Notes under the pieces: model-generated
What the model was told of the DNA's origin: nothing
The model's database searches: none
The model's input: the letters and a program-made list of their open reading frames with translations, nothing else
Assembly: GCA_964634935.1 (NCBI GenBank)
Contig: CAZWJT010000001.1
Coordinates: forward strand, 16,203 to 80,202
Direction of reading: 5' to 3'
Origin: an uncultured Planctomycetia bacterium
GTDB lineage: Bacteria > Omnitrophota > Gorgyraeia > Duberdicusellales > Duberdicusellaceae
DNA length: 64,000 bases
Program-made: the position numbers and the translations under genes
In this document: piece after piece, positions 19,361 through 45,218 of the stretch
Numbering within the stretch: the first letter of the stretch is position 1
How the letters are laid out: the number at the start of each line of letters is the position of its first letter

Positions 19361-21598
19361 TCAAGTTTTTCGGAGAGAAACCAACTCGGTAACAATATTC
19401 CCAACCCAACGATAGATGTTGTTTGCAGAAACAATTTTTCTCATATTCTCCATACGTTTCTTTTTTTCTGGATCAGGCATTTCAACTGCGATTTTTATTG
19501 ACTCTGCAAACTCTTCAATTGCATACGGGTTAAATTGAACTGCATCCGTAAGTTCTCGAGCAGCACCAGTAAACTGGCTTAGAATGAGACTGCCGGATAA
19601 ATCGCTCTTACTTGCAACGTATTCCTTGGCAACCAGATTCATCCCATCATGTAGGGAACTGACAATGCAAAAATCGGCTAATTTATAAAAAGGCATAATT
19701 TCTTCGGCCGAGAAATGTTTTTTAAGATATACGATGGGCTTCCAATCTCCATCCATGTGTTTCCAGTTTTTCTTCTCCACAAGCTCATCAACTTCGGCGA
19801 TAAGATCGTGGTATCGTTTTATGTGCACACGACTTGGGGCAGCCATCTGGATGAAAGTCACTTTCTTCTTATAGTGAGGGTATTTTTCAAAGAATCTGTC
19901 AAGAGCTAAAATTCGCTCAATCAGCCCTTTTGTGTAATCAATTCTGTCTACTCCGATGCCGATGATCCTGCCTTCTAAATCAAATTCACTCTTGATCTTT
20001 GCGATCTGCCGCTCTAGAGGAGAATTATCACATGCTACGGGCATATCCTCTTTCACGCTGATCGGAAAAGCCTTAATAAATGTTTCTTTCTGTGAACGAA
20101 CGACGCTGAATTTCTCCGTGTCTACTCTTGACTCAAGAAGCCGATTTACAGTATCCAAAAAATTATTACAATGATTTTGTACATGAAAACCGATCAAATC
20201 ACACCCGAGCATTCCATCAAGCACTTCTTTCTGATATGGGCATATTGCGAATGATTCTGGGGTAGGCCACGGTATATGCCAAAACAAAGCGATAATCGCA
20301 TCCGGCCTTCTCTCCTTAATCATCTTTCCCAACAGGGTAAAGTGGTAATCCTGAATGAATACAAAAGGGGCAGTCGCAGGCAACTCAGCTATGATACTAT
20401 CAGCAAACTTTTGGTTTACTTGCTTATACATAATCCAATCAGATTCTCGAAAAATAGGGCGGGTATGCGTATTATGACAAAGAGGCCAGAGCCCCTCATT
20501 AGAAAACCCATAATAGTAACCGTCTTCTTCTTCTTTAGTAAGCCAAATCCGCTTAAGAATATACCTGTTGTCTTCCGGAGGAACCCCAAGCTTATCTTTC
20601 GAATTAACGAATTTTTTATCCGCGTTTCCAGCGCCATGCGCAATCCATGTGCCGCCACAAGCGCATAAAATCGGATGAATGGCAGTAACAACGCCACTCG
20701 CCGGTTGTATGCAACGAGCTATCCCTGTTTCCTCGTCAGTAACGTGCATATAGGGCTCACGGTTAGAGACGACAAATAACGAATTCTCTCCTAACTTTGC
20801 TCGCACAAGATCTCTGAGCTTTGCCTCGGTCCAAGCTTCGTCTTTTTGGAGACGCTCTGAAGCTTCTTCCGAGACTGTTCGGCGTGCGATACGTAAACTC
20901 AAAGCAACCTGTTCTACTTCACTTGCCAGCTTCCCAAACTCTCCGTGTTCTTTGATAGGATGCAATTCGTCCGTCTCTCCCTTTTGAAAGTGCGAAAACC
21001 ATACCGTCAATCGTTCAACCGGCAAGGAAAAAATCTGCCTGTGAAGAAAAATCGCTACGATGAAAATAGCAATAACAAGAATGACAAGTGTTACACTGAT
21101 TCTTCGCCAAATCTCAATGAGTCGAGCAAACACATAGGAGGTGTCATGGATAACCTCAACAAGACCAAGAAGCAAGCCCTCTTCATTAACAATCGGCAAC
21201 AAATAACTATATACCGTATAATCCTTAAATTTTTCAAGCTCTCCCCGAGGGATCTGGGTGGACAAAACATCCGGGAGATACGGTTTTTCTTTTTCTTTCC
21301 AATCACTGAATCTTTTCGTGATCGCAATAATTTCTCCTGAAGCATTATACAAAACACAACCTTGCAACCTCTCCCGTGTTTCAAACTTCTCAACTAAATA
21401 ATTAGCATGCCGCATGTTCTTAGCAGTAAAAACCCCCTGGGCCGAAAGCTCCATGCTCTCAGCTATATGTTTTGACTTTCTCTTCAAATCATCAAGAAGC
21501 CTCTCTTCTTCAAAATGAACCTGAAAGTAACCAAACAACGTAAACGCTGCTGTTACAACAATGAGGATTGGAAGAATAAAAAGTAAAACGCGTTTCAT
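19361..21598 (-). CDS. otsA: fusion protein: N-terminal 2-TM periplasmic sensor + HAMP-like linker, C-terminal trehalose-6-phosphate synthase (GT20)
   Basis: Residues ~250-745 carry SLFVVSNREPY, WPLCH, WIQDYHF, GIGVDRIDYTKGL and SLHDGMNLVAKEY (OtsA). Residues 1-250 have TM1 (LLFILPILIVVTAAF), a ~140-aa extracytoplasmic domain, TM2 (VTLVILVIAIFIVAIFL) and an amphipathic linker. Confidence 0.85.
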   Translation of the reverse strand: MKRVLLFILPILIVVTAAFTLFGYFQVHFEEERLLDDLKRKSKHIAESMELSAQGVFTAKNMRHANYLVEKFETRERLQGCVLYNASGEIIAITKRFSDWKEKEKPYLPDVLSTQIPRGELEKFKDYTVYSYLLPIVNEEGLLLGLVEVIHDTSYVFARLIEIWRRISVTLVILVIAIFIVAIFLHRQIFSLPVERLTVWFSHFQKGETDELHPIKEHGEFGKLASEVEQVALSLRIARRTVSEEASERLQKDEAWTEAKLRDLVRAKLGENSLFVVSNREPYMHVTDEETGIARCIQPASGVVTAIHPILCACGGTWIAHGAGNADKKFVNSKDKLGVPPEDNRYILKRIWLTKEEEDGYYYGFSNEGLWPLCHNTHTRPIFRESDWIMYKQVNQKFADSIIAELPATAPFVFIQDYHFTLLGKMIKERRPDAIIALFWHIPWPTPESFAICPYQKEVLDGMLGCDLIGFHVQNHCNNFLDTVNRLLESRVDTEKFSVVRSQKETFIKAFPISVKEDMPVACDNSPLERQIAKIKSEFDLEGRIIGIGVDRIDYTKGLIERILALDRFFEKYPHYKKKVTFIQMAAPSRVHIKRYHDLIAEVDELVEKKNWKHMDGDWKPIVYLKKHFSAEEIMPFYKLADFCIVSSLHDGMNLVAKEYVASKSDLSGSLILSQFTGAARELTDAVQFNPYAIEEFAESIKIAVEMPDPEKKKRMENMRKIVSANNIYRWVGNIVTELVSLRKT

Positions 21599-22677
21599 GA
21601 GAAATTCTTCTCCTGGTTGTAGTTCATTGCCCGAATAGGATAAGGAATAACGATCCCCTCTTTTTTATAACGGCTATGGAGCGCTTTAATAAATTCATGC
21701 TTGACAAGATGCTGATCGACAAATTCTTGAACTCGCAAAATAACTGTAAAATTAATGCTAAAATCACCGAAAGTGTGATAGCGGATAAAGGGGTCGAAAT
21801 CTGGAATGCCTCCCGGGACGATCCGCATAATATCCTTGGCTACCTCACGCGTAATGTGTTCTACTTTCACCAAATCACTTTGGTAATGTACTCCAATATT
21901 TACCAAAACAGCAAGCTCCTTATCTGGTAAATAATAATTCGTAATTATCGATTTGGTCAGTTTTTCGTTCGGCACGAGTATGGCATTATTTGGAAGCATC
22001 CGTATTTTAGTAGTACGCCAGGTTATATCCATCACATACCCCTCTTCTCCTGTTTCGAGTTTAATATAATCGCCGATTTTTACTTGCCGTGCTATGATAA
22101 TATAAAATCCAGAAAAGATATTAGAGAGGGTATCTTGTAACGCCAAAGCAACCGCTAAACTCCCTATGCCCAAAGTAGCCAAAAGCGGAGCAATAGAAAG
22201 CCCCAGGCTGTTCAAAATAATGAGTATTCCTATAGCGAAAATAACCGTCCGACTAATATTTTGGGTGAGCGAGGTTATCGGAAGGGTGGTTTGGATCTTG
22301 TGAGAATACACCCGAATCACACGCGTTGAAATATGCCCCAAAACCAGCATAACCGAAACAACTCCGAGAATAAAAATTGCCTTCTCTACGCCCACAATAA
22401 TCTCTCCTGGAAAACGAGAAATTGCAAGCCCAAAATACGCACCAAGCATAATAAACCAAAGAAGAAAAGGACCCCTTACTGCTTCAATAATAATGTCATC
22501 AATCTGAGACTTGGTGTGCTGAGACCATTGAACCAATCTCTGAAATAAAAATCTCCGTGTACTATACCCGCAAAGGAGTGTAACCAGAAAAACAAGCAAT
22601 GGATTGACAATAAGAACCAGATTTTGCGTAACATACTCCCAAAACATATTCCTCCTGCTCTTAAAATAAAAAGCCAC
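21595..22677 (-). CDS. MscS-family mechanosensitive channel
   Basis: 360 aa, 4-5 TM. Pore helix GIGSLAVALALQDTLSNIFSGFYII, then a beta-domain (VKIGDYIKLETGEEGYVMDITWRTT). Confidence 0.8.
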   Translation of the reverse strand: MAFYFKSRRNMFWEYVTQNLVLIVNPLLVFLVTLLCGYSTRRFLFQRLVQWSQHTKSQIDDIIIEAVRGPFLLWFIMLGAYFGLAISRFPGEIIVGVEKAIFILGVVSVMLVLGHISTRVIRVYSHKIQTTLPITSLTQNISRTVIFAIGILIILNSLGLSIAPLLATLGIGSLAVALALQDTLSNIFSGFYIIIARQVKIGDYIKLETGEEGYVMDITWRTTKIRMLPNNAILVPNEKLTKSIITNYYLPDKELAVLVNIGVHYQSDLVKVEHITREVAKDIMRIVPGGIPDFDPFIRYHTFGDFSINFTVILRVQEFVDQHLVKHEFIKALHSRYKKEGIVIPYPIRAMNYNQEKNFS

Positions 22678-22902
22678 CTTGCGTTATTAAGCAAGATGGC
22701 GGCCCGACCATCAAAAAACCTCCAGGAGAATTATTCCTGGACCCAAATCTTTTTTACTTTACTATTTCGTTCTGTCGCTGAGTCTTATTTTCTGATCGCT
22801 TCTTGCATATCGTTCAGCGCTTGGATGTAGGTTGTTGAATGTAAATATAAGTTTATTATATACAAAAAAAACTTTTCGGCAAGGATGAATTCAGCGAGAA
22901 AC

Positions 22903-26204: not shown

Positions 26205-27773
26205 TCAACCTCTCAGATGGTCCTGTGCTTTTTTAAGTCGATGAGAAAATATTCCCTTTTTAAATTCTGAATTCCAGCCTTTCATAATGAGCCAACCCCC
26301 AAAACGAATGAGATTATTACGCCATGGCCGATACCACCGTTTCCATCCCATATTAAGGTTGTGCAAAAAGAAAACAAGCGACGGGAAAGAAAATATTTGC
26401 AACCCTATCATAAACATATACTTAAACTGATAGAATTTTCCCATAATTTTCCGGATGGAATGTTGCAATCTTTCGGGCGTTAAAGGTTGATCCGGCTCAA
26501 AAGTAGGAAAATTACCATCATAATACTCCCAACCAATATCCTGACTTGGATAGATTCTATTTTGCACCTGCAATCTCTGCCTTAACTCTGTTCCAGGCAA
26601 AGGTACAGGCAAAAGCACCTGTATAGTGTCTATCTGGGCACGCTTAATAAAAATTCTGTACGTTTCGATGCGCTCACGCAAGGACATCGTAAAAGAAAGA
26701 TTTTCCCGGAGCGGGTAACCAAAAATAAACATTCCATGGACCAAAAATCCAAAACGGTGGTAAATCTTAGCAAGATCGATCATTTCCTGAGGTTTTATTT
26801 GTTTTTTCATCGCGGATAACTCTTCTTCAATGGGAGATTCAAATCCAATGGCAACCGTCGTAATTCCTGCTTGACGCATGGCGGCGAGTAATTCCCCGTC
26901 CTTAGCCTTATCTAAACGTATTTGCACAGTGATATCCAAACGTTTGCCTATGTTTCTTTGATAATCCCTGAGCATAGCGCAAAACCGCATAGTTTCATTA
27001 CGGTATTGCCCAAAAAGATCGTCAACAATAAAAAAATGCCGAGCATCCAGTGTTTCCAAAGGATAGCGAATATCCTCAAGCAAACGTTCGGGAGAAGCTG
27101 ACCTTGGCTTCCCTTTCACGGTACAAAACTCACAATCCATGCCACAGCCTCGAATCCGGCCTACGGGATATAGCGTAATCTTCGCGTAACGCACGAGGGA
27201 AAAATCCGGTGAAGGCAAAACATCAAAATCAGTAATCGGCTCACGAGGTTCAGTCATAATACATTTATCGTTTTCTAAATAAGCAATGCCTTTGACTCGG
27301 CTTAAATCCTGATTATTCCGAAGCGAGGTCAGAATCTCTTTTATGGTCAATTCGCCTTCGCCAATAACCAAATAATCAATTGAAGATCGCAAGGCTTCAT
27401 CGATATTTTCCTGGACAAAATGCTGTCCGCCAGCAATCGTTATAGTTCCCATTGATTTATAAAATCGTGCGATTTCATAGAGCCGCGGAATCGTACTGGT
27501 TAACCCCCCGTACAAACCAACAATATCTGCTGGCCTCTCCCGCTGGAGAAACGCGTGATCAACCCCGCCAGATTGAGTTTTCGGGCCATACCGGCGGAAA
27601 TTATTCTCATCGATAACTTCTACATCCCACCCTTCAATTTCGTTGACCATGCTCGCGATACATACAGGTCCTAAAGCGGTGGTTCTGCGGGCAATGCTCG
27701 AGTAAATATTAAAAGTCGGATAAGCTGGAATTACAATCCTTAGTCTATGTCTTTTTTTATTTGAATCAAGCAT
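26205..27773 (-). CDS. B12-binding-domain radical SAM protein (class B) with hydrophobic DUF4070-like C-terminus
   Basis: N-terminal Rossmann-like B12-binding region (DYLVIGEGE), then radical SAM CGMDCEFC (CxxxCxxC) and a C-terminal amphipathic/hydrophobic tail. Confidence 0.75.
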   Translation of the reverse strand: MLDSNKKRHRLRIVIPAYPTFNIYSSIARRTTALGPVCIASMVNEIEGWDVEVIDENNFRRYGPKTQSGGVDHAFLQRERPADIVGLYGGLTSTIPRLYEIARFYKSMGTITIAGGQHFVQENIDEALRSSIDYLVIGEGELTIKEILTSLRNNQDLSRVKGIAYLENDKCIMTEPREPITDFDVLPSPDFSLVRYAKITLYPVGRIRGCGMDCEFCTVKGKPRSASPERLLEDIRYPLETLDARHFFIVDDLFGQYRNETMRFCAMLRDYQRNIGKRLDITVQIRLDKAKDGELLAAMRQAGITTVAIGFESPIEEELSAMKKQIKPQEMIDLAKIYHRFGFLVHGMFIFGYPLRENLSFTMSLRERIETYRIFIKRAQIDTIQVLLPVPLPGTELRQRLQVQNRIYPSQDIGWEYYDGNFPTFEPDQPLTPERLQHSIRKIMGKFYQFKYMFMIGLQIFSFPSLVFFLHNLNMGWKRWYRPWRNNLIRFGGWLIMKGWNSEFKKGIFSHRLKKAQDHLRG

Positions 27774-27800
27774 ATCCTGCTCATTAGCTTAGAGTCTTTT

Positions 27801-28535
27801 TTATTTCTTTGCATGAATTATAAGATGCCGTCCAAATAACAGTTCTCTTGAAAAAAGTATCCGATGTATCCGCTGAAAACCAACATTCCCCTTTCTCCGA
27901 TCTCTGCGCTCTTTTAGATAGGCTTGTCCCTTTAAAAATGGACTTAAGAAAAAATAAAGAAATTTGAGCGGCATACGTTCTAAATCAGTATAAATTCCAG
28001 CCACGCGCAACTTATTCTTGCAAAGAAGATACTCCAGTTCGTGATAACGCCAAGGAATAACATGCATGTTTTGGAAAGCACCCGGAAAAACCCGACAATA
28101 ATCAGCTAATGGCTCACGAAAAAAATCAAAACTACCCTCAAACAAAAATCTCATCCTTGAGCCTACATTCAAGATGTTTGGTGTGGATAAAAATAAACTA
28201 CCATCGGACTTTAACACCCTCTGTATTTCAGAAATAACAAAATCCGGGTTATAGAGATGTTCAATTACCTCAAGAAAAAGAACAAAATCAAATGCTTTAT
28301 CGGAAAATGGAAGCGGAAAACTAAGGTTAGAATGGATAAAAGGTATTTCCTGGTCAAACTGGAATCTCTGTTTGTCCATGTCTGATGCCGTAACCGAAAA
28401 ACCTAAATCAAATAAACGCTTTGAGGTTATTCCATGCCCGCAGCCTAAATCAAGAACAGCGCCCTTTGTCTGCTGAGAACAGAGAGCAATGACTTTCTCT
28501 GAAAGATAATTTTGTGAGCGTTTATTGATTTTCAT
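27801..28535 (-). CDS. class I SAM-dependent methyltransferase
   Basis: VLDLGCGHG (motif I) and a D/E acidic loop. 244 aa. Confidence 0.7.
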   Translation of the reverse strand: MKINKRSQNYLSEKVIALCSQQTKGAVLDLGCGHGITSKRLFDLGFSVTASDMDKQRFQFDQEIPFIHSNLSFPLPFSDKAFDFVLFLEVIEHLYNPDFVISEIQRVLKSDGSLFLSTPNILNVGSRMRFLFEGSFDFFREPLADYCRVFPGAFQNMHVIPWRYHELEYLLCKNKLRVAGIYTDLERMPLKFLYFFLSPFLKGQAYLKERRDRRKGNVGFQRIHRILFSRELLFGRHLIIHAKK

Positions 28536-31968: not shown

Positions 31969-34065
31969 CTATCTTCTGTGTAAAATCATCTTAATCCGCG
32001 CCAGCAACTTGTCAGAATCAAAGGGTTTGATAATATAGTCATCCGCGCCTTGCGCAAAACCCTCAAGCTCACTTGACTTATCCTGCCGAGCAGTCAGCAT
32101 AATTACCGGAATCACTGCTGTTTCTAAACGCGATCGCAAATGGCGCAACATCTCGAAACCGTTCATCTTCGGCATAGTAACATCACTAATAATCAAATCC
32201 GGCTTGGCCCGATGCGCAAGCTCTAGAGCTTCGCTTCCGTCGCGGGCGACAATCACTTGATACCCAAAGCTCTGCAATCGGGCTTCGAGAATCCTTAAAA
32301 TATCCTCTTCATCATCGGCGATAAGAATTTTTATTTTTTGTCCGGTATCCCGGGAAAACTTATCGATTCTATCCTCTTCTCTCACTCCAATAACCCGAAT
32401 AAGCTCATCGAGGGTGCTCATTCCGGATGCAACTTTGTCCATCCCGGAATAGATAAGGGGCTTGAGACCGTTGTTTTGGGCGGCGAGGAAAATCTGTTCT
32501 TCAGGAACTTCTTCGGCAATTAGTCTACGGATAGAATCATTGATTGCCATCATCTCAAAAATAGCTGTTCTCCCCATATATCCAGTAAAATTGCATCGCG
32601 GACATCCTTTGCCATGGAAAAATTTAGTAATCCGCAACTCTTCTATGTGTTTTCGAAAATCAGCAATTAAATTTTGCGGAGGAACATATTCTTCCCGACA
32701 ATCAGAACAAATCACTTTTATAAGCCTCTGTGCCACTATCAGGACAACCGACGAAGCAATACTATACGCTTCAACACCTAAATCTCTCAGGCGCGTTACC
32801 GAAGAAACAGAATTATTTGTGTGCATTGTCGAAAGAACCAGATGTCCGGTAAGTGAAGATTGGAATGCGATTTCCGCTGTCTCTTGGTCTCGGATTTCGC
32901 CTACGAGAATAATATTAGGATCCTGTCGTAAAATACTCCTCAATCCGGTAGCAAAGGTGACATTCTTCTGAGGATTTACCTGCATTTGGTTAACCCCCGC
33001 GATAAGATACTCAATCGGATCTTCAATGGTGACGATGTTTTTTGTCTCGTGCTTTATATAATTTAAAGCGGCGTAAAGCGTGCTGGTTTTCCCTGAACCA
33101 GTAGGCCCAGTTACTAAAATCATTCCCTGGGGTTTCCGAATGGCACTCTGAAAAATATGCGAATCAGAAGAACTTAAGCCTATTTTGGCTAAATCGATCT
33201 TTGCCTCTTGAAGATCAAGGAGTCGCATCTCAACTTTTTCTCCGAAAAAAGTTGGAATAACCGAAACACGCAGATCAATCTTCCTGCCATATACAAGAAT
33301 TTTGCTTCGCCCGTCTTGTGGCTTGCGCGTCTCAGCAATATCAAGCTCGGAAAGAATCTTGAGACGAGAAACAATGAACGGATGGAGGGCGGCGGGAATC
33401 CGCATAACATTTTGGAGATCTCCGTCTACCCGATAACGCACGATTACCTCGGATTCTTGCACTTCGACATGAATATCACTTGCCCGGGCTTTCACGGCAT
33501 CGGTAATAATAAGGGTACAAAGACGAACTACCGGAGCGTCTGAATCTTCAATAAGCTGAACAGCGCCGCTGGATGTGAATTTTTTAATCGGCTCAAGAGA
33601 TGTTTGATCGACAATATTCTTTAAAATATCATACACCGTTTCATCTGAATGATAGTGCTGCTCAAGAAAAACCTTAATCACACTTTTTGAACAGAGAATT
33701 GGCTGAATATCCTTTTTCGCAATAACCGCAAGGTCATCCCGCGCGATAACATCTTGAGGATCACTCATCGCAAGAACAAGTGCATTTCTTTCAATCCGAA
33801 CAGGAAACACGCCATATCGTTTTGCCAGTTCATAGGGAACAAGCTTAACAACTTCAGGATCAAACGACTCAGCGGAAAGATCGCATATGGGCATATGGAA
33901 AACTTCCGCGGCTACTTCAACCACCACTTCTTCCTTGATAAAACCCATATCAATAAGCACTTCGTGCAAAGGAATTTTTGCTCCCTGCTGTTTTGATCTG
34001 GCATCATTGATTTGCTCTTGAGTCACCAGTTCTTTTTCCAATAATGCGGTTACGAGTAGTGACAT
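31969..34065 (-). CDS. GspE/PilB-family secretion ATPase fused to a C-terminal CheY-like receiver domain
   Basis: T2SSE_N-like N-domain. Walker A GPTGSGKTST and tetracysteine (CSDC...CPRC). C-terminal ILIADDEEDI...DLIISDVTMPKMNGFE...K receiver domain with the phospho-acceptor Asp. Confidence 0.8.
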   Translation of the reverse strand: MSLLVTALLEKELVTQEQINDARSKQQGAKIPLHEVLIDMGFIKEEVVVEVAAEVFHMPICDLSAESFDPEVVKLVPYELAKRYGVFPVRIERNALVLAMSDPQDVIARDDLAVIAKKDIQPILCSKSVIKVFLEQHYHSDETVYDILKNIVDQTSLEPIKKFTSSGAVQLIEDSDAPVVRLCTLIITDAVKARASDIHVEVQESEVIVRYRVDGDLQNVMRIPAALHPFIVSRLKILSELDIAETRKPQDGRSKILVYGRKIDLRVSVIPTFFGEKVEMRLLDLQEAKIDLAKIGLSSSDSHIFQSAIRKPQGMILVTGPTGSGKTSTLYAALNYIKHETKNIVTIEDPIEYLIAGVNQMQVNPQKNVTFATGLRSILRQDPNIILVGEIRDQETAEIAFQSSLTGHLVLSTMHTNNSVSSVTRLRDLGVEAYSIASSVVLIVAQRLIKVICSDCREEYVPPQNLIADFRKHIEELRITKFFHGKGCPRCNFTGYMGRTAIFEMMAINDSIRRLIAEEVPEEQIFLAAQNNGLKPLIYSGMDKVASGMSTLDELIRVIGVREEDRIDKFSRDTGQKIKILIADDEEDILRILEARLQSFGYQVIVARDGSEALELAHRAKPDLIISDVTMPKMNGFEMLRHLRSRLETAVIPVIMLTARQDKSSELEGFAQGADDYIIKPFDSDKLLARIKMILHRR

Positions 34066-37565: not shown

Positions 37566-38198
37566 CTACTCGTATAACAGGTTGTCAATTTGAACACGCT
37601 TCACATAAATAATCTCACAAGAACCCATCCCTGTGTCTGATCTACTTAAACTCGTATTCCACCATACTGGATTTTCCCCTTGAAATCCTTTAATGTTAAC
37701 AAGATAGCCCTCGATTCGCATCTTCTGGTTAATGCGCGCAGCACACATCGCCCGATACACGCTTTCATTAGCAGGAATTGTATGGTTATTAGAAGAATGA
37801 GTAATGATATCTTCATTCTGGAAAGGACTCTCTGGGGTATATTGCCAATAATACCATCGATTATTCTGCCAATAGCGGACGAAACGCTTGGCTTCCGACT
37901 CAGCCAGCTTCCCCCAAACAAAAGCAACATCAAACGGAGCTAAACATGCTTCCCAGCTCGAAGAGTACTTTTTTTTGCCCACTACTACGCCAGAAAGAGC
38001 ATAGCGCGCAACTGGCAGAATTTGAAATTCTTCCGTTCCGCATCGAACAGTCAATGTTTCACCGTCAAACGGTTCTTGACAAGGATCCTCGTAGATATCA
38101 ATGATTTGGGAAACTTCTTCTTTTCCCTTATGATTACCACACCCAGAAACTATCAAACCAATGGAACAGAACCCCAGAAAAACAACCAGACTTTTCAT
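37566..38198 (-). CDS. hypothetical lipoprotein
   Basis: Signal peptide with lipobox LIVSGC. 210 aa, Trp/Tyr-rich. Confidence 0.45.
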   Translation of the reverse strand: MKSLVVFLGFCSIGLIVSGCGNHKGKEEVSQIIDIYEDPCQEPFDGETLTVRCGTEEFQILPVARYALSGVVVGKKKYSSSWEACLAPFDVAFVWGKLAESEAKRFVRYWQNNRWYYWQYTPESPFQNEDIITHSSNNHTIPANESVYRAMCAARINQKMRIEGYLVNIKGFQGENPVWWNTSLSRSDTGMGSCEIIYVKRVQIDNLLYE

Positions 38199-38267: not shown

Positions 38268-38870
38268 TCACGAAATGACCAATTCAACAGTGTCAAAATA
38301 AAAGACTCCCTTACTTTCTGGCTTTGGTTCAAACTGAAAACTCTTTAACGGAAAGTCCAGCTGGAAATTGTTATCGGCATTATCCGGCTGCCAGTCTCCT
38401 CGAGGAAGAAAATCATCGAGAGAACAAACAATCTGCTTCCAGCCAGTAAAGGTATCTTCGATAAGATACCGGAAAATCTCATTACCGCTATCTTTTATGT
38501 CGAACGCGATATTAGCCTGGGAATTATTTCCATATACCCAGACGGAAATTGCGCGAACTTTCTTCCATTCAATTCCATCGGGCTTGATGAGCCAAGAAGA
38601 GTTTTTGGCGTCCAGGCCGTACCCGCGAGCAATCCAGATATAGCCGCCAGAAACTGCTTGATAGTCGACTTTAAGCGACTGGTTCCCCGTGTGTTTCATT
38701 TGCTGGTCGGCAGAAACTGCCACCGCTGAACCATTCCCGGATCCAAAATCAACAGTTCCCTCTGGACCACCAATTAAATTTCCCTCAAAATCATCAAGTA
38801 AAATATTTGCTCCTTCCGCGAAACAAACACCTGCAAACAACACGATAACAATCAACCAAAATAAACGCAT
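38268..38870 (-). CDS. hypothetical exported beta-rich protein
   Basis: Start chosen at MRLFWLIVIVLFAGVCFA/EG (GGAGGGG upstream); the track ORF extends to 38924. No motif recognised. Confidence 0.4.
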   Translation of the reverse strand: MRLFWLIVIVLFAGVCFAEGANILLDDFEGNLIGGPEGTVDFGSGNGSAVAVSADQQMKHTGNQSLKVDYQAVSGGYIWIARGYGLDAKNSSWLIKPDGIEWKKVRAISVWVYGNNSQANIAFDIKDSGNEIFRYLIEDTFTGWKQIVCSLDDFLPRGDWQPDNADNNFQLDFPLKSFQFEPKPESKGVFYFDTVELVIS

Positions 38871-38907
38871 TATCCCCTCCTTTTTCATGCTATTAGTATA
38901 CACGAAA

Positions 38908-39927
38908 TCATCGAATATTCCCATTCAAAACGGCTTCTTCCTGGTATTTTCTTAGAAATGGTTCCTCGCATGAATACGAGTTAAAGCATGCTTCAGCCGC
39001 AGCTTTGCATCCGCCGAAACAGCGAAGTCGTAATTTGCATAAACGACAGAATGGAGGAAAAACAGCGACAAAATCCCGTGCAGCCTTTTTCGCGATAATA
39101 TGCTCAAATGACTCAGTATCAATATTACCAAGGATCATCCCGCTATGATTGCACATGCGCACATTACCAAGCGGATCAATCGTGTAATACGCGTTTTCGG
39201 TTCCGGCAGAACAAAATCCAAAGTGAAGCTTCTGGAATTTTCCTAGATTTATTAGGCAGGGCTGAATAGGAATTGAACATGAAATTGGAAAATTATATCG
39301 CATACTAAAAGCGTCTGCTTGCGCAAGAACCAAATCTATCTGGGAAGGTGTCGGAAGCAGCTCTTCGCAATGAAAAACCCCTTCACCGCCGGGATTAAAA
39401 CGGTTAAGCATTAAACTATCCGCACCCAAAGCAAAAGCCAGCTTCGCGGTACCCTCAAAATCCTCAATATTCTTACGGGTTGCAACAAACACAACGACTA
39501 CTCGCGCATGATATTGTTTTAAAGTTACCAGCGTACGGGTAATCTCGTCGAAAGCATCATATCGCATAAGAGCGTTATGAACTGCACGATGACAGCTCAA
39601 TAACGGCAACTCAAAGGTAACGAACTTGGAACAATTTCTTGCCGCTTGCTGAGAGATAAGAGTTCCATTCGTAATGATATTAATCAGAACAGCCTGATCT
39701 TTTAAAAAATGAACTATTTCTTCAAGATCATCACGAAGAAATGGTTCTCCGCCAGTAAGCGTTATAACCGAGGCTTTCGTCTCAGAAAGAATCTTTGCCA
39801 ATAAATCCTTGGTTTTTGCGGTATCAAGTTCTCCCCGCGGGTAGCTAGGATTGCGTTTCCATACGTTATAACAATAAACACAAGAACTGTTACAGCGCTG
39901 GGTAATCTCAAAAATAATATTCCTTAT
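38908..39927 (-). CDS. radical SAM / SPASM-domain maturase; no canonical start codon
   Basis: The in-frame translation upstream of the track ORF gives ...IRNIIFEITQRCNSSCVYCYN (CxxxCxxC), then GGEPFL, and a C-terminal auxiliary-cluster Cys array (CRLCKLRLRCFGGCKAAAEAC). There is no ATG, GTG or TTG between the upstream in-frame TGA and the Cys motif. The only candidates are ATA at 39925-39927 (5 nt after AAGGAGGG) or ATT. The 5' boundary is uncertain. Confidence 0.6.
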   Translation of the reverse strand: MRNIIFEITQRCNSSCVYCYNVWKRNPSYPRGELDTAKTKDLLAKILSETKASVITLTGGEPFLRDDLEEIVHFLKDQAVLINIITNGTLISQQAARNCSKFVTFELPLLSCHRAVHNALMRYDAFDEITRTLVTLKQYHARVVVVFVATRKNIEDFEGTAKLAFALGADSLMLNRFNPGGEGVFHCEELLPTPSQIDLVLAQADAFSMRYNFPISCSIPIQPCLINLGKFQKLHFGFCSAGTENAYYTIDPLGNVRMCNHSGMILGNIDTESFEHIIAKKAARDFVAVFPPFCRLCKLRLRCFGGCKAAAEACFNSYSCEEPFLRKYQEEAVLNGNIR

Positions 39928-39940
39928 GGCTCCCTCCTTC

Positions 39941-41380
39941 TTATTGATTCATTGCTACGATAAAAGAAAGTGCTTCAATCATTTCTGGCCGCACGGGAAA
40001 ATCATCTCGTATCTCTGCTGAATCATATTCCTGGTTTATAAAATAACTCAAAAGTTTCTGCTCTTCTTTTTGATAAAGTTCCCAATTTTTCCCGGATGCT
40101 TTTTTCCAGGCTCCTTCGATGCAAAGCACCATTTCCATATCTTTTGCCAGATTCTTCTCAGCTTGGGCGAGAACTCCCCGTTCAACGATACCCTGCCCTT
40201 GCAACGTTCGAAGCTCTTTTAATCGCGCCTCAATATCGTCACGTAACTTTTGCTGTTTAAATCCCAACACTGTTGGCTCGTAACACGTAATTGCGCTCGT
40301 TGAACGCAAGCGGTGAAAGACACGGTCCTTATAAATACCAACGAGCAGCTCAGCCGTTGAAACGCTGATAATCTTTCTCGCCGTGAACACCGAAAGAAGA
40401 TTACGAAGCTCTTCCTCTTCGCGGGCAAGCGTTGCTGGTATATTTGATGAACGGAAATCCGCTAATCCATTAAACTCATGAACCGAATTCCATTTTTTCT
40501 TCAACACAGCCCACTCAGAAAACGCAGAATAATCTTGGTTTTGGAAATCATTCTCGGACGTATGCCTTTTCGCAACATTCGGAGCAGCCAAAGAATAGAA
40601 ATCAATTATATAGTTGACAGCCTCTTGGACAGAAGGACTGACCACAAGCTCAAAACTCACTTTTCCTTCAGCAAAAAGAAGCGCCAACGCCTCCTCTTCC
40701 TGAAAATCATACTGATGGGTTTGCTGTGTTTTCGCAAAAAGAGCTTCAGCGCGCTTGAGATATTCGATATCGCGACCCAAGGTTTCTTTGGAAGCCCGAA
40801 TAATACTTTCTTCAACATACCCACGGGCCGCAATCTCACCAAGCATTTGGCATCGCTTTTCTAAATTCTCTCGTACAGACCAAACTGAACTACCCAAAGT
40901 AGTCGGTTTATAACAGGTTTCTCCCGATTGCGAGCGCAACCGATGAAAAATCATCTCACCATAAATCATTTCCAGAACAATGGCAACATCTTTTCGAATC
41001 AACCCTTTATCAACAAGAGCAGAAAAATTTCTGGCGAGAATCTGCTTTTTTGTAGCGATAACATCCCGATAATCCGCAGCAGCAGCAACCGCCTCTTTTG
41101 TAAGATCAAGCCACTGCGAGCGAATAGCCAGCCATTCGGAAGTATTTTTCAAATCAGGGGTCTTGGAAAATAAACAATCTTCATTGTTCTTTGCTTGTGC
41201 ATAAGCAAAAGATTGTTGTTGCGAAAAGATAGCAAGAAACGAGGAAAGTGCGATGAAAAATTGCCGACTTAAAAAAGTATTTCCTTTCAGATGAAAAATG
41301 GGTTTTTTTCTCGTGCAGATATAGTAAAGAGCAACAAAAAACGCAAACACGCTCAGCGTAAAAACAGCTATCTTATGCAT
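39941..41380 (-). CDS. hypothetical exported protein with an internal ~190-aa tandem duplication
   Basis: Repeat 1 contains SEWLAIRSQW ... IYGEMIFHRLRSQSGETCYKPTTLG. Repeat 2 contains SEWAVLKKKW ... IYKDRVFHRLRSTSAITCYEPTVLG. N-terminal TM or signal segments. Confidence 0.45.
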   Translation of the reverse strand: MHKIAVFTLSVFAFFVALYYICTRKKPIFHLKGNTFLSRQFFIALSSFLAIFSQQQSFAYAQAKNNEDCLFSKTPDLKNTSEWLAIRSQWLDLTKEAVAAAADYRDVIATKKQILARNFSALVDKGLIRKDVAIVLEMIYGEMIFHRLRSQSGETCYKPTTLGSSVWSVRENLEKRCQMLGEIAARGYVEESIIRASKETLGRDIEYLKRAEALFAKTQQTHQYDFQEEEALALLFAEGKVSFELVVSPSVQEAVNYIIDFYSLAAPNVAKRHTSENDFQNQDYSAFSEWAVLKKKWNSVHEFNGLADFRSSNIPATLAREEEELRNLLSVFTARKIISVSTAELLVGIYKDRVFHRLRSTSAITCYEPTVLGFKQQKLRDDIEARLKELRTLQGQGIVERGVLAQAEKNLAKDMEMVLCIEGAWKKASGKNWELYQKEEQKLLSYFINQEYDSAEIRDDFPVRPEMIEALSFIVAMNQ

Positions 41381-41635: not shown

Positions 41636-42853
41636 CTAATTTTCATGGTTTATACCGCAACTTGCACGGAAAATTGCCTGCCTGCCAAGTTTGCTTCGGA
41701 TTTTTTCAACCGCCCGGTGTAAATTTTCTCTACGCTTCTCTTCCTGCCAAAAAATAGTCTCGCTCTCTTTTTGACCGCTTAAACGGGAAATCTTAATCCC
41801 GAGAAGCCTAATCATTCCCGCTTGGTCTATGTGTTGGAAAAGAGCGACTGCGTGACGAAACAATATGTCAACAAAGTTTGTGGAAAAAGCTAACGTCACG
41901 GATTTTGTTGTCGTGGTGAAATCTGAGAACCGCACCTTTACTACCAGTGTTCTTCCAACAATCTGTTCATGCCTCAATCTCTCAGAAACATCCTCACAAA
42001 GAGAAAATAGTGTTTTCCTGAGAAGATCGCCATCTCGGGTATCGCGTTCGAAGGTAACCTCGGAACTTATCGATTTTGTCGTAGCATTCTCCTCAACCTG
42101 GTGTGCATCTCTGCCCCAAGCAAGTTCAAAGAAATAATTTCCGTTCTTTCCAAACAATCTCTGCAAAACCTTTAAATCATACCGTGCGAGAGCTCCAATC
42201 GTAGCGACACCCATCCGACGAAGAACTTCTTCTGTTTTCTTACCCAAACCGCACAACTTGGTTACCGGGAGAGGCCACAAAAATTTAAGCAGATCTTGGG
42301 GAACAACCTCGACTAATCCATCTGGCTTCTGAAGATCAGAAGCTATTTTTGCCGCCATTTTTGTTGGTGCAATTCCTAAAGAAGCAGTAAGACCAAGTTT
42401 TTTCAAGATACATTCTTTTAAACTTCTTGCGGCATGAAGACTGGATGCGTATCGATGCATCGTACTCGTCATGTCTAAAAATGCTTCATCGATACTCACG
42501 ACCTCATGCACGGGGGTAAAAGCATCAAAAATCTGATACAATTGACGGGAAACCTGTTGGTAGCGTTCCATACGGACCGGAACGAATACCGCCTGAGGGC
42601 ATAACTTATACGCAATAGATATGGGCATCGCGGAATGTATTCCAAAGGCGCGCGCCTGGTAAGAACAAGTAGAAACTACTCCTCGCCCCCGCCCTCCCTT
42701 GGGGTCGGCGCCAACAATGAGAGGACGGTCACGATAGCTAGGGTTATCTTTCTGCTCTACAGAAGCAAAGAAAGCATCCATGTCTACATGAAAAATTACC
42801 GAAAAATGTTCAACAGACACGCTTTTATTCAATCTAAGCAACCAGTCCATCAA
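41636..42853 (-). CDS. dinB: DNA polymerase IV (Y-family)
   Basis: IFHVDMDAFFASVE catalytic block, SIDEAFLD, and a little-finger domain. 405 aa. Confidence 0.85.
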   Translation of the reverse strand: MMDWLLRLNKSVSVEHFSVIFHVDMDAFFASVEQKDNPSYRDRPLIVGADPKGGRGRGVVSTCSYQARAFGIHSAMPISIAYKLCPQAVFVPVRMERYQQVSRQLYQIFDAFTPVHEVVSIDEAFLDMTSTMHRYASSLHAARSLKECILKKLGLTASLGIAPTKMAAKIASDLQKPDGLVEVVPQDLLKFLWPLPVTKLCGLGKKTEEVLRRMGVATIGALARYDLKVLQRLFGKNGNYFFELAWGRDAHQVEENATTKSISSEVTFERDTRDGDLLRKTLFSLCEDVSERLRHEQIVGRTLVVKVRFSDFTTTTKSVTLAFSTNFVDILFRHAVALFQHIDQAGMIRLLGIKISRLSGQKESETIFWQEEKRRENLHRAVEKIRSKLGRQAIFRASCGINHEN

Positions 42854-45218
42854 CCACTCTTACAGCTTCGACGCAATCTTTCGCATATTCTGCGCCGATG
42901 CTTTGAGCATACCTTTGCGTCACGACTGCTCCGCCAACCACAAAAAAACAATCGATACCTTCTTTCCGAGCCGCTTGAATTACTTCATCCATCTTCACCA
43001 TTGTCGTTGTCATGAGAGCCGAGAGTCCGACGACCTTTGGTTTATGCTGCTTTATTGCCTTGATAATTGTGCCTGTTGAAACATCCTTTCCTAAATCCAC
43101 CACCTCAAAACCATGATTCTTAAGCATCAAGGAAACTAAATTTTTTCCAATATCATGAATATCACCTTCAACGGTAGCTAAAATAACAACGGCTTTGTAG
43201 GCATTTCCCGCATGCTCACGACGCAGTAAAGGATTTAAATGCTCTAATGCTTTCTTTACCACTTCAGCGCTTGCAATAAGCTGAGGAAGAAAATATTCTT
43301 TCCGGTCAAACAAATGACCGACATTTGTGATAGCCGGAATTACAACCGTGTTAACCAAAGCAATGGCCGAGATACCCTCTGCCAAAGCCTGCTTCACAAA
43401 CTTCAAAATTTCTTCCTTATTCCCCTGGCAGATCGCGGAAAAAATTTGATCATGAGAAGAAGTTTTTCCCGACTGAATGTGTTTTGTTCCGTCTTTCTTA
43501 AAATGAACAACATACCTCTGAGCGTGAGTGTCCCGTCCAAGCAAAAGTTCGGCGGCCTTCTTGGTGCAAACAAGTTCTTCGCTCAAAGGATCAGCGATGA
43601 CCGCTGAAAGACCCTTCTGAACCGCCATAGAAAGAAAAGAAGAATTGACCCAAGCGCGCCCAGGCAATCCAAATGAAATATTTGAAAGACCAATCACTGT
43701 ATGTGCTTTCAGTTTTTGCGTGCACCATTCGATAGTCTCTAGCGCTTCAGAAGCAGCATCTGCGCATGACGCAACACTCAAAGCCAAAGCATCAATGAAA
43801 ATATCGTCTGTAGTAAAACCGTGTTTCCGGGCAACCTCCAATACCTTTTCGATAACGTCCTTACGTTGATTGAAGGTTTCCGGAATTTTCTTCCCAGCCA
43901 CCGGCAAAAGAATAAACATAGCTCCGTACCGCCTTGCTAAAGACAAAAACCTGTTTAACTTCGATTTTTCCCCTGAAATTGAATTAATCAACGCTCTCCC
44001 TGGATAAATACGCAAGGCTTGTTCCAGGGCTTCAAAATTCGTTGTGTCCAAAACCAAAGGCAATGGACTGATTACCGATAATAAGCGGACGGCAGAAATT
44101 AAACTCTTCTCCTCAGATATCCCAGCCGCCCCCACATTAACATCCAGCAGATGTGCTCCTTTTTCTCTCTGAGCGTATGCCTGTGTACGTATATAATTTG
44201 TTGAGGAATTCCTCAACTCTGCCTGGAATGCCTTTTTACCAGTTGGATTGATTCGTTCTCCGATAAGTATAATTTCTGGGGTATTTTTGAACAAAAACCC
44301 CTCTCGGGATGAGCTGAGAGCAGAAAGAGAGATGCGTTTATTCTTTACTGGCCTAACGCCTTCTAAATGTTCTTTTAAGGCTGCTATATGTCCAGGAGTC
44401 GTACCACAACACCCTCCAATCATCCGCGCTCCGGATTGAACAATATGTACAGCTTGATGAGCAAAATCTTGCTTATTCATAGTAAATACTGCCTGCCCGT
44501 TGATTAAATGCGGGATATCAGCATTGGGTTTAGCAATGAGAGGCACAAGTGAATAGGGTTGCGCTTGCTGCATACACACAAGCATATCTTCTGGCCCAGT
44601 TGAACAATTACACCCCACAGCATGGGCCCCAAGACTCTGCAGAGTAATCAACGCAGAAAGCATTGTTGTTCCGTTTAAAGTACGGCCGTTCTTCTCGTAG
44701 GTCATCGTAACACAGGTGAATTTTTTCGTGAGTTCCTGTGCTGCAAGAAGTGCTGCTCGAGCTTCCTGGATATCGATCATCGTCTCAATCACCAAAAGAT
44801 CCACTCCGCCCGCAAGCAAACCTTCAATCTGTTCACGAAAAACCAGAACTGCCTCTTCAAACGGAAAGTCTCCGAACGGTTCAACAAATCTTCCGGTAGG
44901 ACCGATATCTCCCGCGACGAGACACCTGCCGTTGGCAGATTTACGTGCAAGCAGTGCTAAATTACGGTTAACAGCCTTAACGTCTTTACGGGAAAAATGA
45001 TCCAACTTACAACGGTTAGCGCCAAACGTGCAAGTATAAAGCACATCAGACCCAGCTCGAACATACGCATCATGAATGGTTTGAAGCACCTTGGGGTTTT
45101 CCAAACACCACAGTTCCGGACAAACTCCGGAGCGCATACCGTGTTTCTGCAACTCAGTTCCCATAGCACCATCAAGAAGAACAACTCGTTTTTGAAGAAG
45201 CTCTTGAATTTTTTCCAT
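42834..45218 (-). CDS. metH: cobalamin-dependent methionine synthase, short form (Hcy-binding, pterin-binding, B12 cap and B12-binding domains; no activation domain)
   Basis: N-terminal homocysteine S-methyltransferase domain (LLDGAMGTEL), GCCGTTP zinc site, pterin-binding barrel, and DIHDIGKNLV (DxHxxG cobalamin motif). Only 794 aa. Confidence 0.9.
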   Translation of the reverse strand: MEKIQELLQKRVVLLDGAMGTELQKHGMRSGVCPELWCLENPKVLQTIHDAYVRAGSDVLYTCTFGANRCKLDHFSRKDVKAVNRNLALLARKSANGRCLVAGDIGPTGRFVEPFGDFPFEEAVLVFREQIEGLLAGGVDLLVIETMIDIQEARAALLAAQELTKKFTCVTMTYEKNGRTLNGTTMLSALITLQSLGAHAVGCNCSTGPEDMLVCMQQAQPYSLVPLIAKPNADIPHLINGQAVFTMNKQDFAHQAVHIVQSGARMIGGCCGTTPGHIAALKEHLEGVRPVKNKRISLSALSSSREGFLFKNTPEIILIGERINPTGKKAFQAELRNSSTNYIRTQAYAQREKGAHLLDVNVGAAGISEEKSLISAVRLLSVISPLPLVLDTTNFEALEQALRIYPGRALINSISGEKSKLNRFLSLARRYGAMFILLPVAGKKIPETFNQRKDVIEKVLEVARKHGFTTDDIFIDALALSVASCADAASEALETIEWCTQKLKAHTVIGLSNISFGLPGRAWVNSSFLSMAVQKGLSAVIADPLSEELVCTKKAAELLLGRDTHAQRYVVHFKKDGTKHIQSGKTSSHDQIFSAICQGNKEEILKFVKQALAEGISAIALVNTVVIPAITNVGHLFDRKEYFLPQLIASAEVVKKALEHLNPLLRREHAGNAYKAVVILATVEGDIHDIGKNLVSLMLKNHGFEVVDLGKDVSTGTIIKAIKQHKPKVVGLSALMTTTMVKMDEVIQAARKEGIDCFFVVGGAVVTQRYAQSIGAEYAKDCVEAVRVVDGLVA

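Follow-up and report, generated by a model that had tools for sequence, protein, structure and literature searches.

The 64,000-nucleotide (nt) stretch analysed here, referred to as the window, comes from an uncultured Planctomycetia bacterium (contig CAZWJT010000001.1) and carries a gene for a radical SAM/SPASM enzyme (38908-39927) that lacks a canonical start codon. Judged by its conserved residues and its modelled structure, this gene encodes a complete enzyme that is predicted to be functional. The most likely mechanism for its expression, to which we assign a probability of roughly 55%, is initiation at an AUA codon that would be directed by a strong Shine-Dalgarno sequence and coupled to termination of the partner gene immediately upstream. 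The public annotation, which starts the protein at a TTG codon at 39801, is a gene-caller artefact that removes the iron-sulfur cluster motif. All coordinates are positions in the window, and the radical SAM gene and its partner are both located on the minus strand. The features needed to follow the argument are listed below.

38908-39927, minus strand: radical SAM/SPASM coding sequence from ATA to TGA, 339 codons plus the stop, as defined by translation, Pfam, homologues and AlphaFold2
39941-41380, minus strand: upstream partner gene, 479 amino acids (aa), with an N-terminal membrane anchor or signal; its TAA lies 13 nt before the ATA
39949-39957, minus strand: in-frame stops TAG (39957-39955) and TGA (39951-39949), which close the radical SAM frame upstream
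39933-39939, minus strand: Shine-Dalgarno sequence AAGGAGG, followed by a G at 39932; 5 nt (GAGCC) from the ATA
39925-39927, minus strand: ATA, the proposed initiation codon, at codon -11 relative to the first cluster Cys; the sole near-cognate codon at the optimal 5-nt Shine-Dalgarno spacing
39913-39926, minus strand: weaker alternative site, TAAGGA (39926-39921) followed after 5 nt by the second ATT (39915-39913); the first ATT is at 39918-39916
39871-39894, minus strand: CxxxCxxC (CNSSCVYC) [4Fe-4S] cluster motif, residues 12-19, with C12, C16 and C19 invariant in the alignment
39799-39801, minus strand: TTG, the first in-frame canonical start, which begins the 297-aa database product without the cluster motif (open reading frame (ORF) 38908-39801)

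The radical SAM frame was open from 39948, with no stop until the TGA at 38910-38908. From the upstream TGA (39951-39949) the minus strand reads ATC AAT AAG AAG GAG GGA GCC ATA (39927-39925) AGG AAT ATT ATT TTT GAG ATT ACC CAG CGC TGT (39894), followed by AAC AGT TCT TGT GTT TAT TGT, which completes the CNSSCVYC motif; the end of the partner gene, in its own frame, reads GTA GCA ATG AAT CAA TAA. The string of codons between the TGA and the motif matched exactly that given in the original prediction, which had claimed that the frame reaches the cluster motif without a canonical start, and direct reading of these codons bore this out, since no ATG, GTG or TTG was present in frame. By contrast, the claim that the first ATG of the ORF lies 33 nt downstream of the motif was incorrect; the ATG at that site (gtATGg, 39862-39860) lies in another frame, the TTG at 39801, which codes for a conserved Leu of the family, is the first canonical start in frame, and the first in-frame ATG is codon 121 counted from the ATA. 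The database entry (P0001, in both NCBI and Logan) is a 297-aa protein with 100% identity that starts at this TTG. Gene callers restricted to ATG, GTG and TTG had shortened the enzyme by 42 residues, with the loss of the catalytic iron-sulfur motif, and as annotated a functional radical SAM enzyme would pass for a cluster-less fragment.

The original prediction had also described a strong Shine-Dalgarno site 5 nt before the ATA, and such a site was found, inside the 13-nt gap between the partner TAA and the ATA. The sequence AAGGAGG occurred nine times on the coding strand of the window and not at all on the opposite strand; five of the other eight copies were located 4-6 nt before the ATG of a gene and three were inside large genes. 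Based on its frequency in the window, the chance of finding AAGGAGG in a given 15-nt gap was approximately 0.2%, and the ribosome-binding site before the ATA is more than a chance occurrence. It tied as the second-strongest Shine-Dalgarno sequence among approximately 50 gene starts in the window, and roughly half of the genes in this genome have such sites. The downstream neighbour gene, which starts at the ATG at 38870, had an identical AAGGAGGG Shine-Dalgarno sequence with the same 5-nt spacing. The RNA around the start site was no more structured than shuffled controls (z = +1.42).

Assignment to the radical SAM family was based on the presence of CNSSCVYC after beta strand 1 together with an above-threshold profile match (Radical_SAM PF04055, 64.6 bits, cut-off 29.5); Fer4_12 was also above its cut-off. 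The SAM-binding GGE motif was found as LTGGEPFL, with G59, G60, E61 and P62 invariant. SPASM (PF13186, 29.2 bits, cut-off 21.5) matched residues 244-297, within the following region.

38968-39279, minus strand: Cys-rich C-terminal SPASM region, with Cys 217, 224, 239, 259, 294, 297, 303, 307, 314 and 320

The SPASM motifs were read as GNVRMC (GX4C), CRLCKLRLRCFGGC (CX2CX5CX3C) and the later C314, and both the seven-Cys pattern (CX9-15GX4C ... CX2CX5CX3C ... C) and the profile match were obtained; the first spacing was scored as exceeding the textbook 9-15 (C239 to G254, 14 residues before the G, with C259 closing the motif). None of the NCBIfam equivalogs AhbD, NirJ2, StsB, PqqE and MftC reached its cut-off (79-85 bits against cut-offs of 265-625), with scores of 79.5 against 381 for PqqE, 79.2 against 265 for MftC, 85 against 500 for AhbD and 84.4 against 500 for NirJ2. 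Three other family members (P0019, P0090 and P0030) were likewise below the equivalog cut-offs. The profiles with a short N-terminus, AhbD and NirJ2, aligned with the ATA product from profile positions 2-4.

A protein search identified 1728 relatives. The 119 best non-self matches spanned 337-388 aa, and the self-hit alone was truncated. In an alignment of 45 family sequences, comprising the window protein and 44 homologues, the window protein was 46-57% identical to the homologues and retained all 58 invariant columns, including the three cluster Cys, GGEP, NRFNPGG and seven C-terminal Cys (224, 239, 259, 294, 297, 303 and 307). The 42 codons before the annotated TTG hold the three invariant cluster Cys as well as the invariant residues E7, Y20, N21, Y29, P30 and L34, and on this conservation they are clearly coding. 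No signs of gene decay were observed in the 339 stop-free codons; every family-invariant residue was present and the partner gene was intact.

The ATA-start product was then modelled with AlphaFold2 on the same 45-sequence alignment, which gave a mean predicted local distance difference test (pLDDT) score of 95.1 and a predicted template modelling (TM) score of 0.92. In this confident model beta strand 1 comprised residues 3-9, and the ATA product would therefore be the complete enzyme, beginning two residues before strand 1. The model had the alternating beta/alpha elements of a partial TIM barrel and matched solved radical SAM enzymes; the closest Foldseek matches were SkfB, SuiB, anSMEcpe and PqqE, and the best match over both full lengths was anSMEcpe (PDB 4K37; TM scores 0.73 and 0.68). 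The best sequence match to a solved structure over the full length was PqqE (6C8V, E = 2e-7). The enzyme had no N-terminal recognition domain for ribosomally synthesised and post-translationally modified peptides (RiPPs) and began directly with beta strand 1.

Translation would begin at the AUA at 39927-39925, decoded by the initiator transfer RNA. The AAGGAGG sequence would direct the ribosome to this codon, and the position of the partner stop, 13 nt before the AUA, would deliver ribosomes that finish the partner straight onto the start site. AUA being a poor start, output of the enzyme would probably be only a small fraction of that of the co-transcribed partner, as published results from other bacteria suggest. 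The arrangement of the sequence and the intactness of the gene were observed directly, and from these we infer the actual initiation event and its level.

Near-cognate starts have precedents in other bacteria. In Escherichia coli AUA, AUC, AUU and CUG initiate translation at approximately 1-2% of the AUG level, with values of 0.02-3% depending on the construct, and each of the four sometimes appears as an annotated start (bioRxiv 10.1101/063800). IF3 discriminates against near-cognate start codons, and a Shine-Dalgarno sequence eases the inhibition of re-initiation by excess IF3 (PMC2268962). Ribosome profiling of Staphylococcus aureus with retapamulin showed that infC, ccpN and citZ start at AUA and cvfC1 at AUU; strong or extended Shine-Dalgarno sequences accompany the conserved non-canonical sites (infC, ccpN and cvfC1), and the citZ AUA is confined to one strain lineage (PMC13009471). 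In reporter assays, cvfC1, ccpN and citZ gave approximately 10% of the AUG level, with ccpN reaching up to 30% in rich medium (PMC13009471). If the AUA start is real, the maturase joins a short list of bacterial genes that are throttled by a near-cognate start, in a phylum without genetics.

Several results weighed against AUA initiation. The original prediction had proposed an examination of where homologues start, and this was done with 81 homologue loci (80 from species-representative genomes, together with L001 and its two Logan copies). A canonical start (ATG, GTG or TTG) was present in 80 of the 81, at 12-26 codons before the first Cys and most often at -18; ATA is not conserved in the family, and the missing start is therefore a one-off rather than a family trait. 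At codon -11, compared to -12 to -26, the N-terminus of the ATA product is the shortest in the family. The ATA is also a single transition from ATG, and a recent mutation or a base error would look identical. No close relative was available in which conservation of the ATA could be assessed: the nearest homologue in the protein search was 59% identical, none of the 80 loci from the GTDB genome scan was above 52% identity, and two wobble-degenerate DNA patterns for the N-terminus gave no matches in the JGI metagenomes. Genus-level relatives were not found either; the named best matches of the neighbouring DinB were only Candidatus Omnitrophota metagenome-assembled genomes (MAGs), at approximately 54% identity, which places the source in a deep-branching Omnitrophota lineage. 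Two properties of a non-canonical start were therefore present, namely the absence of an in-frame canonical start before essential residues and a strong Shine-Dalgarno sequence at a functional spacing, and the third, conservation among relatives, was absent at the level of the family.

In the three closest relatives (L001, L084 and L086; 57-58% identity), the partner stop is followed by 2 nt and then an ATG, with no Shine-Dalgarno sequence. In the window the partner gene ends a few bases later, an ATC directly behind the in-frame TGA aligns with the ATG of these relatives, and the strong Shine-Dalgarno sequence and ATA follow seven codons on; among these four loci, the combination of a weak codon and a very strong Shine-Dalgarno sequence was found only in the window. 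The ATC itself (39948, codon -18) was rejected as a start because it is upstream of the Shine-Dalgarno sequence, in the last codons of the partner, and has no such sequence of its own.

The sole exception among the 81 loci was in a deltaproteobacterial MAG (L057:3780-4060), in which no in-frame ATG, GTG or TTG was found in the 81 open codons before the CxxxCxxC motif. An ATC is located 7 nt after the TAG of the upstream gene at this locus, which may represent another non-canonical start or another assembly problem.

The options named in the original prediction, an ATA start, an ATT start or an assembly error, were exactly those that survived these analyses, with the ATA the best placed of the codons (7-nt Shine-Dalgarno sequence, 5-nt spacing). 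The strongest of the alternatives, which we nevertheless consider unlikely, is that an ancestral ATG at 39927 recently became ATA and the enzyme is effectively unmade, so that the gene is a nascent pseudogene or a strong hypomorph and the ATA has no adaptive meaning. Such a change requires one transition, the Shine-Dalgarno sequence and its spacing are those of a normal ATG start, as at the neighbouring gene at 38870, the missing start is unique to this family member apart from the deltaproteobacterial locus, and a similar lineage-specific variant, the citZ AUA, is known from S. aureus. Against start loss, no second lesion was observed in the 339 codons, the invariant residues were all retained and the partner was intact. 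Furthermore, published AUA starts that have a Shine-Dalgarno sequence and coupling still yield 1-30% of the AUG level; as this may suffice for a catalytic maturase, start loss shades into the AUA reading. Sequence alone does not separate an AUA start from a fresh mutation or an error, nor start loss from a tolerated hypomorph; without a second lesion, any mutation would be recent or tolerated. Somewhat less probable again is an artefact: all or most cells would carry ATG, and the A at 39925 would stem from a miscalled base or from a minority variant taken up into the assembly. The source is an assembly from an uncultured organism, with a contig of 353,849 bp, and the deltaproteobacterial locus, from another MAG, also lacks a canonical start; with approximately 1-2% of family loci anomalous, the data fit either rare biology or rare errors. 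This assembly does not appear to be error-prone or noisy, because long intact ORFs (at least 150 aa, on one strand) cover approximately 90% of the window and no broken genes were found. A short-read consensus substitution at one given base should be far rarer than genuine non-canonical starts. The latter number approximately four in the S. aureus genome (PMC13009471).

The other alternatives were considered improbable to varying degrees. Initiation at the second ATT (39915-39913), giving (M)FEITQRC..., would use TAAGGA, which matches 6 nt of the Shine-Dalgarno consensus at a good spacing, and among natural non-canonical starts AUU has the best documentation (infC and pcnB; cited in PMC2268962 and PMC13009471). 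TAAGGA is a weaker site than AAGGAGG, however, and the product would lose N-I-I, which is half of beta strand 1 (pLDDT 94 over residues 3-9), and no family member begins closer than -12 to the first Cys; we regard this start as quite improbable. Still less credible is the idea that the annotated 297-aa product is real and constitutes a cluster-less pseudo-radical-SAM/SPASM protein. A weak AAGGA is present 4 nt before the TTG, and pseudo-SAM/SPASM families exist, one of which (TIGR04347) was among the NCBIfam matches. However, the sequence just upstream encodes, in frame, an intact CxxxCxxC motif and nine further invariant residues, the TTG falls on the conserved Leu, beta strand 1 and the cluster loop of the confident model would be lost, and the other 119 top homologues were all of full length. 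Recoding, whether by read-through of the TGA, reassignment of AUA to Met or a frameshift that fuses the partner to the enzyme, was judged the most remote. It gains some appeal from an ATG (39952-39950) one base out of frame upstream, since dropping one A of ATGAATC would give M-I-N-K-K-E-G-A-I-R-N-I-I-F-E, an N-terminus of typical length. TGA and TAA terminate genes normally in the window, though, and there was no slippery sequence, with the Shine-Dalgarno sequence located downstream of the would-be shift site and not upstream. Read-through was rejected as a TAG is present two codons above the TGA, and reassignment was rejected as internal ATA codons fall at Ile, Val or Leu columns and the invariant Met is encoded by ATG. 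The one-A deletion would, in addition, join partner and enzyme into one protein; the partner C-terminus falls within one residue of those of its orthologues and the genes are separate in all relatives, and a frameshift or fusion is therefore unlikely.

The partner protein, to whose translation AUA initiation would be coupled, has two homologous helical repeats after its N-terminal hydrophobic anchor, each of approximately 190 aa (internal repeat E = 3e-21), each of which carries FHRLRS-x-S-x-x-TCY-x-PT-x-LG. The two T-C-Y motifs are located as follows.

40910-40918, minus strand: first T-C-Y motif of the partner, aa 155-157, in FHRLRSQSGETCYKPTTLG; invariant among three orthologues
40280-40288, minus strand: second T-C-Y motif of the partner, aa 365-367, in FHRLRSTSAITCYEPTVLG; invariant among three orthologues

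No match to the partner was found in Pfam or NCBIfam. Structure prediction from a 3-sequence alignment gave an all-helical model of pLDDT 51, with the T-C-Y motifs in low-confidence loops, a quality too low for fold comparison. In L001, L084 and L086 the gene before the radical SAM gene is an orthologue of the partner (35% identity to that of L001 and 34-36% to P0122 and P0123), and at more distant loci weak matches to the partner were found immediately upstream of the enzyme gene.

The comparison of upstream proteins covered 77 sequences, whose sources include Planctomycetota, Chloroflexota, Deltaproteobacteria and Verrucomicrobiota. Cys-Tyr was present in 68 of these proteins, with 117 occurrences compared to approximately 0.09 expected per protein, and 40% of all Cys residues preceded a Tyr. 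Thr was found at -1 in 89 of 116 Cys-Tyr motifs and Pro or Met at +3 in 88 of 116. An unbiased k-mer analysis identified TCY as the most enriched tripeptide (61 of the 77 proteins, 0.38 expected). The products of the upstream genes are otherwise fast-evolving and have 1-4 copies each of T-C-Y-x-[P/M] (window, L001, L004-L086). Many of the Chloroflexota partners (L017, L014, L023, L026, L027 and others) start with a twin-arginine translocation (Tat) signal, S/T-R-R-D/E-F-M/I-K-L ... L-T-R-C; TIGR01409 (Tat signal) was above its cut-off in the L017 partner, and Pfam and NCBIfam scans of four partners from other phyla detected the Tat signal only. Planctomycetota partners have an N-terminal transmembrane helix, GPxWKRRL and a second transmembrane helix. 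These N-termini suggest that any modification would take place in the cytoplasm before export.

The conserved adjacency, the motif and the fold of the enzyme lead us to infer a substrate relationship. The partner would be the substrate of the enzyme, exported or membrane-anchored and with two T-C-Y sites, and these sites would be modified in the cytoplasm before export, as is done by anSME on sulfatases. Candidate reactions, by analogy, are conversion of the Cys to formylglycine, as in anSME, or formation of a Cys-derived crosslink. The earlier suggestion that the SPASM-type C-terminus marks a peptide- or protein-modifying enzyme gained support from the confirmed SPASM domain, the proximity of the fold to anSME, SuiB, SkfB and PqqE, and the conservation of the neighbouring T-C-Y motif across phyla. 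Neither the enzyme nor the partner is a member of any curated family, and a literature search on SPASM proteins with TCY or with twin-arginine/Chloroflexi retrieved no paper that described the pair; these results point to an uncharacterised protein-modification pair. More tentatively, and we regard this as possible rather than probable, there may be a phylum-spanning system in which an anSME-like enzyme that lacks the RiPP recognition element (RRE) modifies the Cys (or Cys-Tyr) of T-C-Y-x-P/M in a Tat-, Sec- or membrane-targeted protein prior to export, with the enzyme:substrate ratio set deliberately low by the AUA and a maximal Shine-Dalgarno sequence. The pairing of a T-C-Y partner with an RRE-less SPASM enzyme is a more promising lead than the start codon itself; it is widespread and uncurated, its T-C-Y site is nearly invariant, and it makes a concrete candidate for a radical SAM post-translational modification of a new type.

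The surrounding genes were those of an ordinary chromosome and encoded DinB, a short MetH, TruD, CorA, histidine kinases and a PilB-receiver fusion. Gene co-orientation was extreme, with 53 of 56 ORFs of at least 150 aa on the minus strand and the three plus-strand ORFs inside larger minus-strand ORFs, and GC skew was negative across the whole 64 kb. Downstream of the enzyme gene are genes for a secreted CBM11/FlaA-like protein (38268-38924, minus strand; the real start is probably the ATG at 38870) and a 210-aa putative lipoprotein with an LIVSGC lipobox (37566-38198, minus strand); this neighbourhood was not conserved in relatives, and in L001 the SPASM gene instead precedes a B12-radical SAM gene and a type III polyketide synthase gene. 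A B12-binding radical SAM protein with weak BchE/HpnJ-like matches is also encoded in the window (26205-28535, minus strand), beside a SAM-dependent methyltransferase, and is unrelated to the SPASM gene. The MetH-like methionine synthase (42834-45218, minus strand; 794 aa) covers profile positions 1-854 of 1182, without the C-terminal reactivation domain, and the 3' end of its gene overlaps the start of the DinB ORF by 20 nt. The gene at 31969-34065 (minus strand) encodes a PilB/GspE-type type IV pilus ATPase fused to a C-terminal response-regulator receiver (residues ~578-697). An nhaA-I RNA motif (Rfam RF03057, 51.9 bits, gathering threshold 37) at 22694-22744 on the minus strand immediately precedes an MscS-like channel gene (21595-22677) rather than nhaA.

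With respect to its start, the window gene is best regarded as a further case of a rare but known phenomenon, an AUA start backed by a strong Shine-Dalgarno sequence. Like the S. aureus AUA and AUU starts and the E. coli infC and pcnB AUU starts, it has a near-cognate AUN codon in place of AUG and a strong Shine-Dalgarno sequence at the proper spacing, and in those cases expression is reduced but real. Like the S. aureus citZ AUA, the ATA is lineage-specific and not family-wide. In contrast to the S. aureus and E. coli examples, which were mapped experimentally and most of which are conserved among relatives, the window case belongs to a family in which 80 of 81 loci start canonically, and its product is a maturase rather than a regulator or translation factor.

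With respect to the enzyme, the best sequence-profile matches were to PqqE, MftC, AhbD, NirJ and NirJ2, at scores (79-85 bits) several-fold under the curated cut-offs (265-500 bits). Unlike the PqqE, MftC and heme systems, there were no adjacent pqq, mft or heme-pathway genes, and in place of a short PqqA- or MftA-like peptide the neighbouring gene encodes a 479-aa membrane or exported protein. The maturases SkfB, SuiB, AlbA and StsB were among the top Foldseek matches and use SPASM or twitch auxiliary-cluster chemistry on adjacently encoded Cys-containing substrates; they differ from the window enzyme in having an N-terminal RRE/PqqD-like domain and in acting on short leader-containing peptides, whereas the window partner is large. 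Sequence identity to anSME was only 17-18%, the anSME model (TIGR03942, sulfatase_rSAM) was outside the top 25 of the window protein and gave 67.8 against 349 for P0030, and the partner has no sulfatase domain in Pfam or NCBIfam and carries T-C-Y-x-P/M in place of C/S-x-P/A-x-R. Like anSME, however, the window enzyme is a single polypeptide of similar size that joins a radical SAM core to a SPASM domain for two auxiliary clusters and lacks an N-terminal RiPP-recognition domain. It may also resemble anSME in its mode of action: the target of anSME is a Cys within a short motif, in an entire protein destined for later export.

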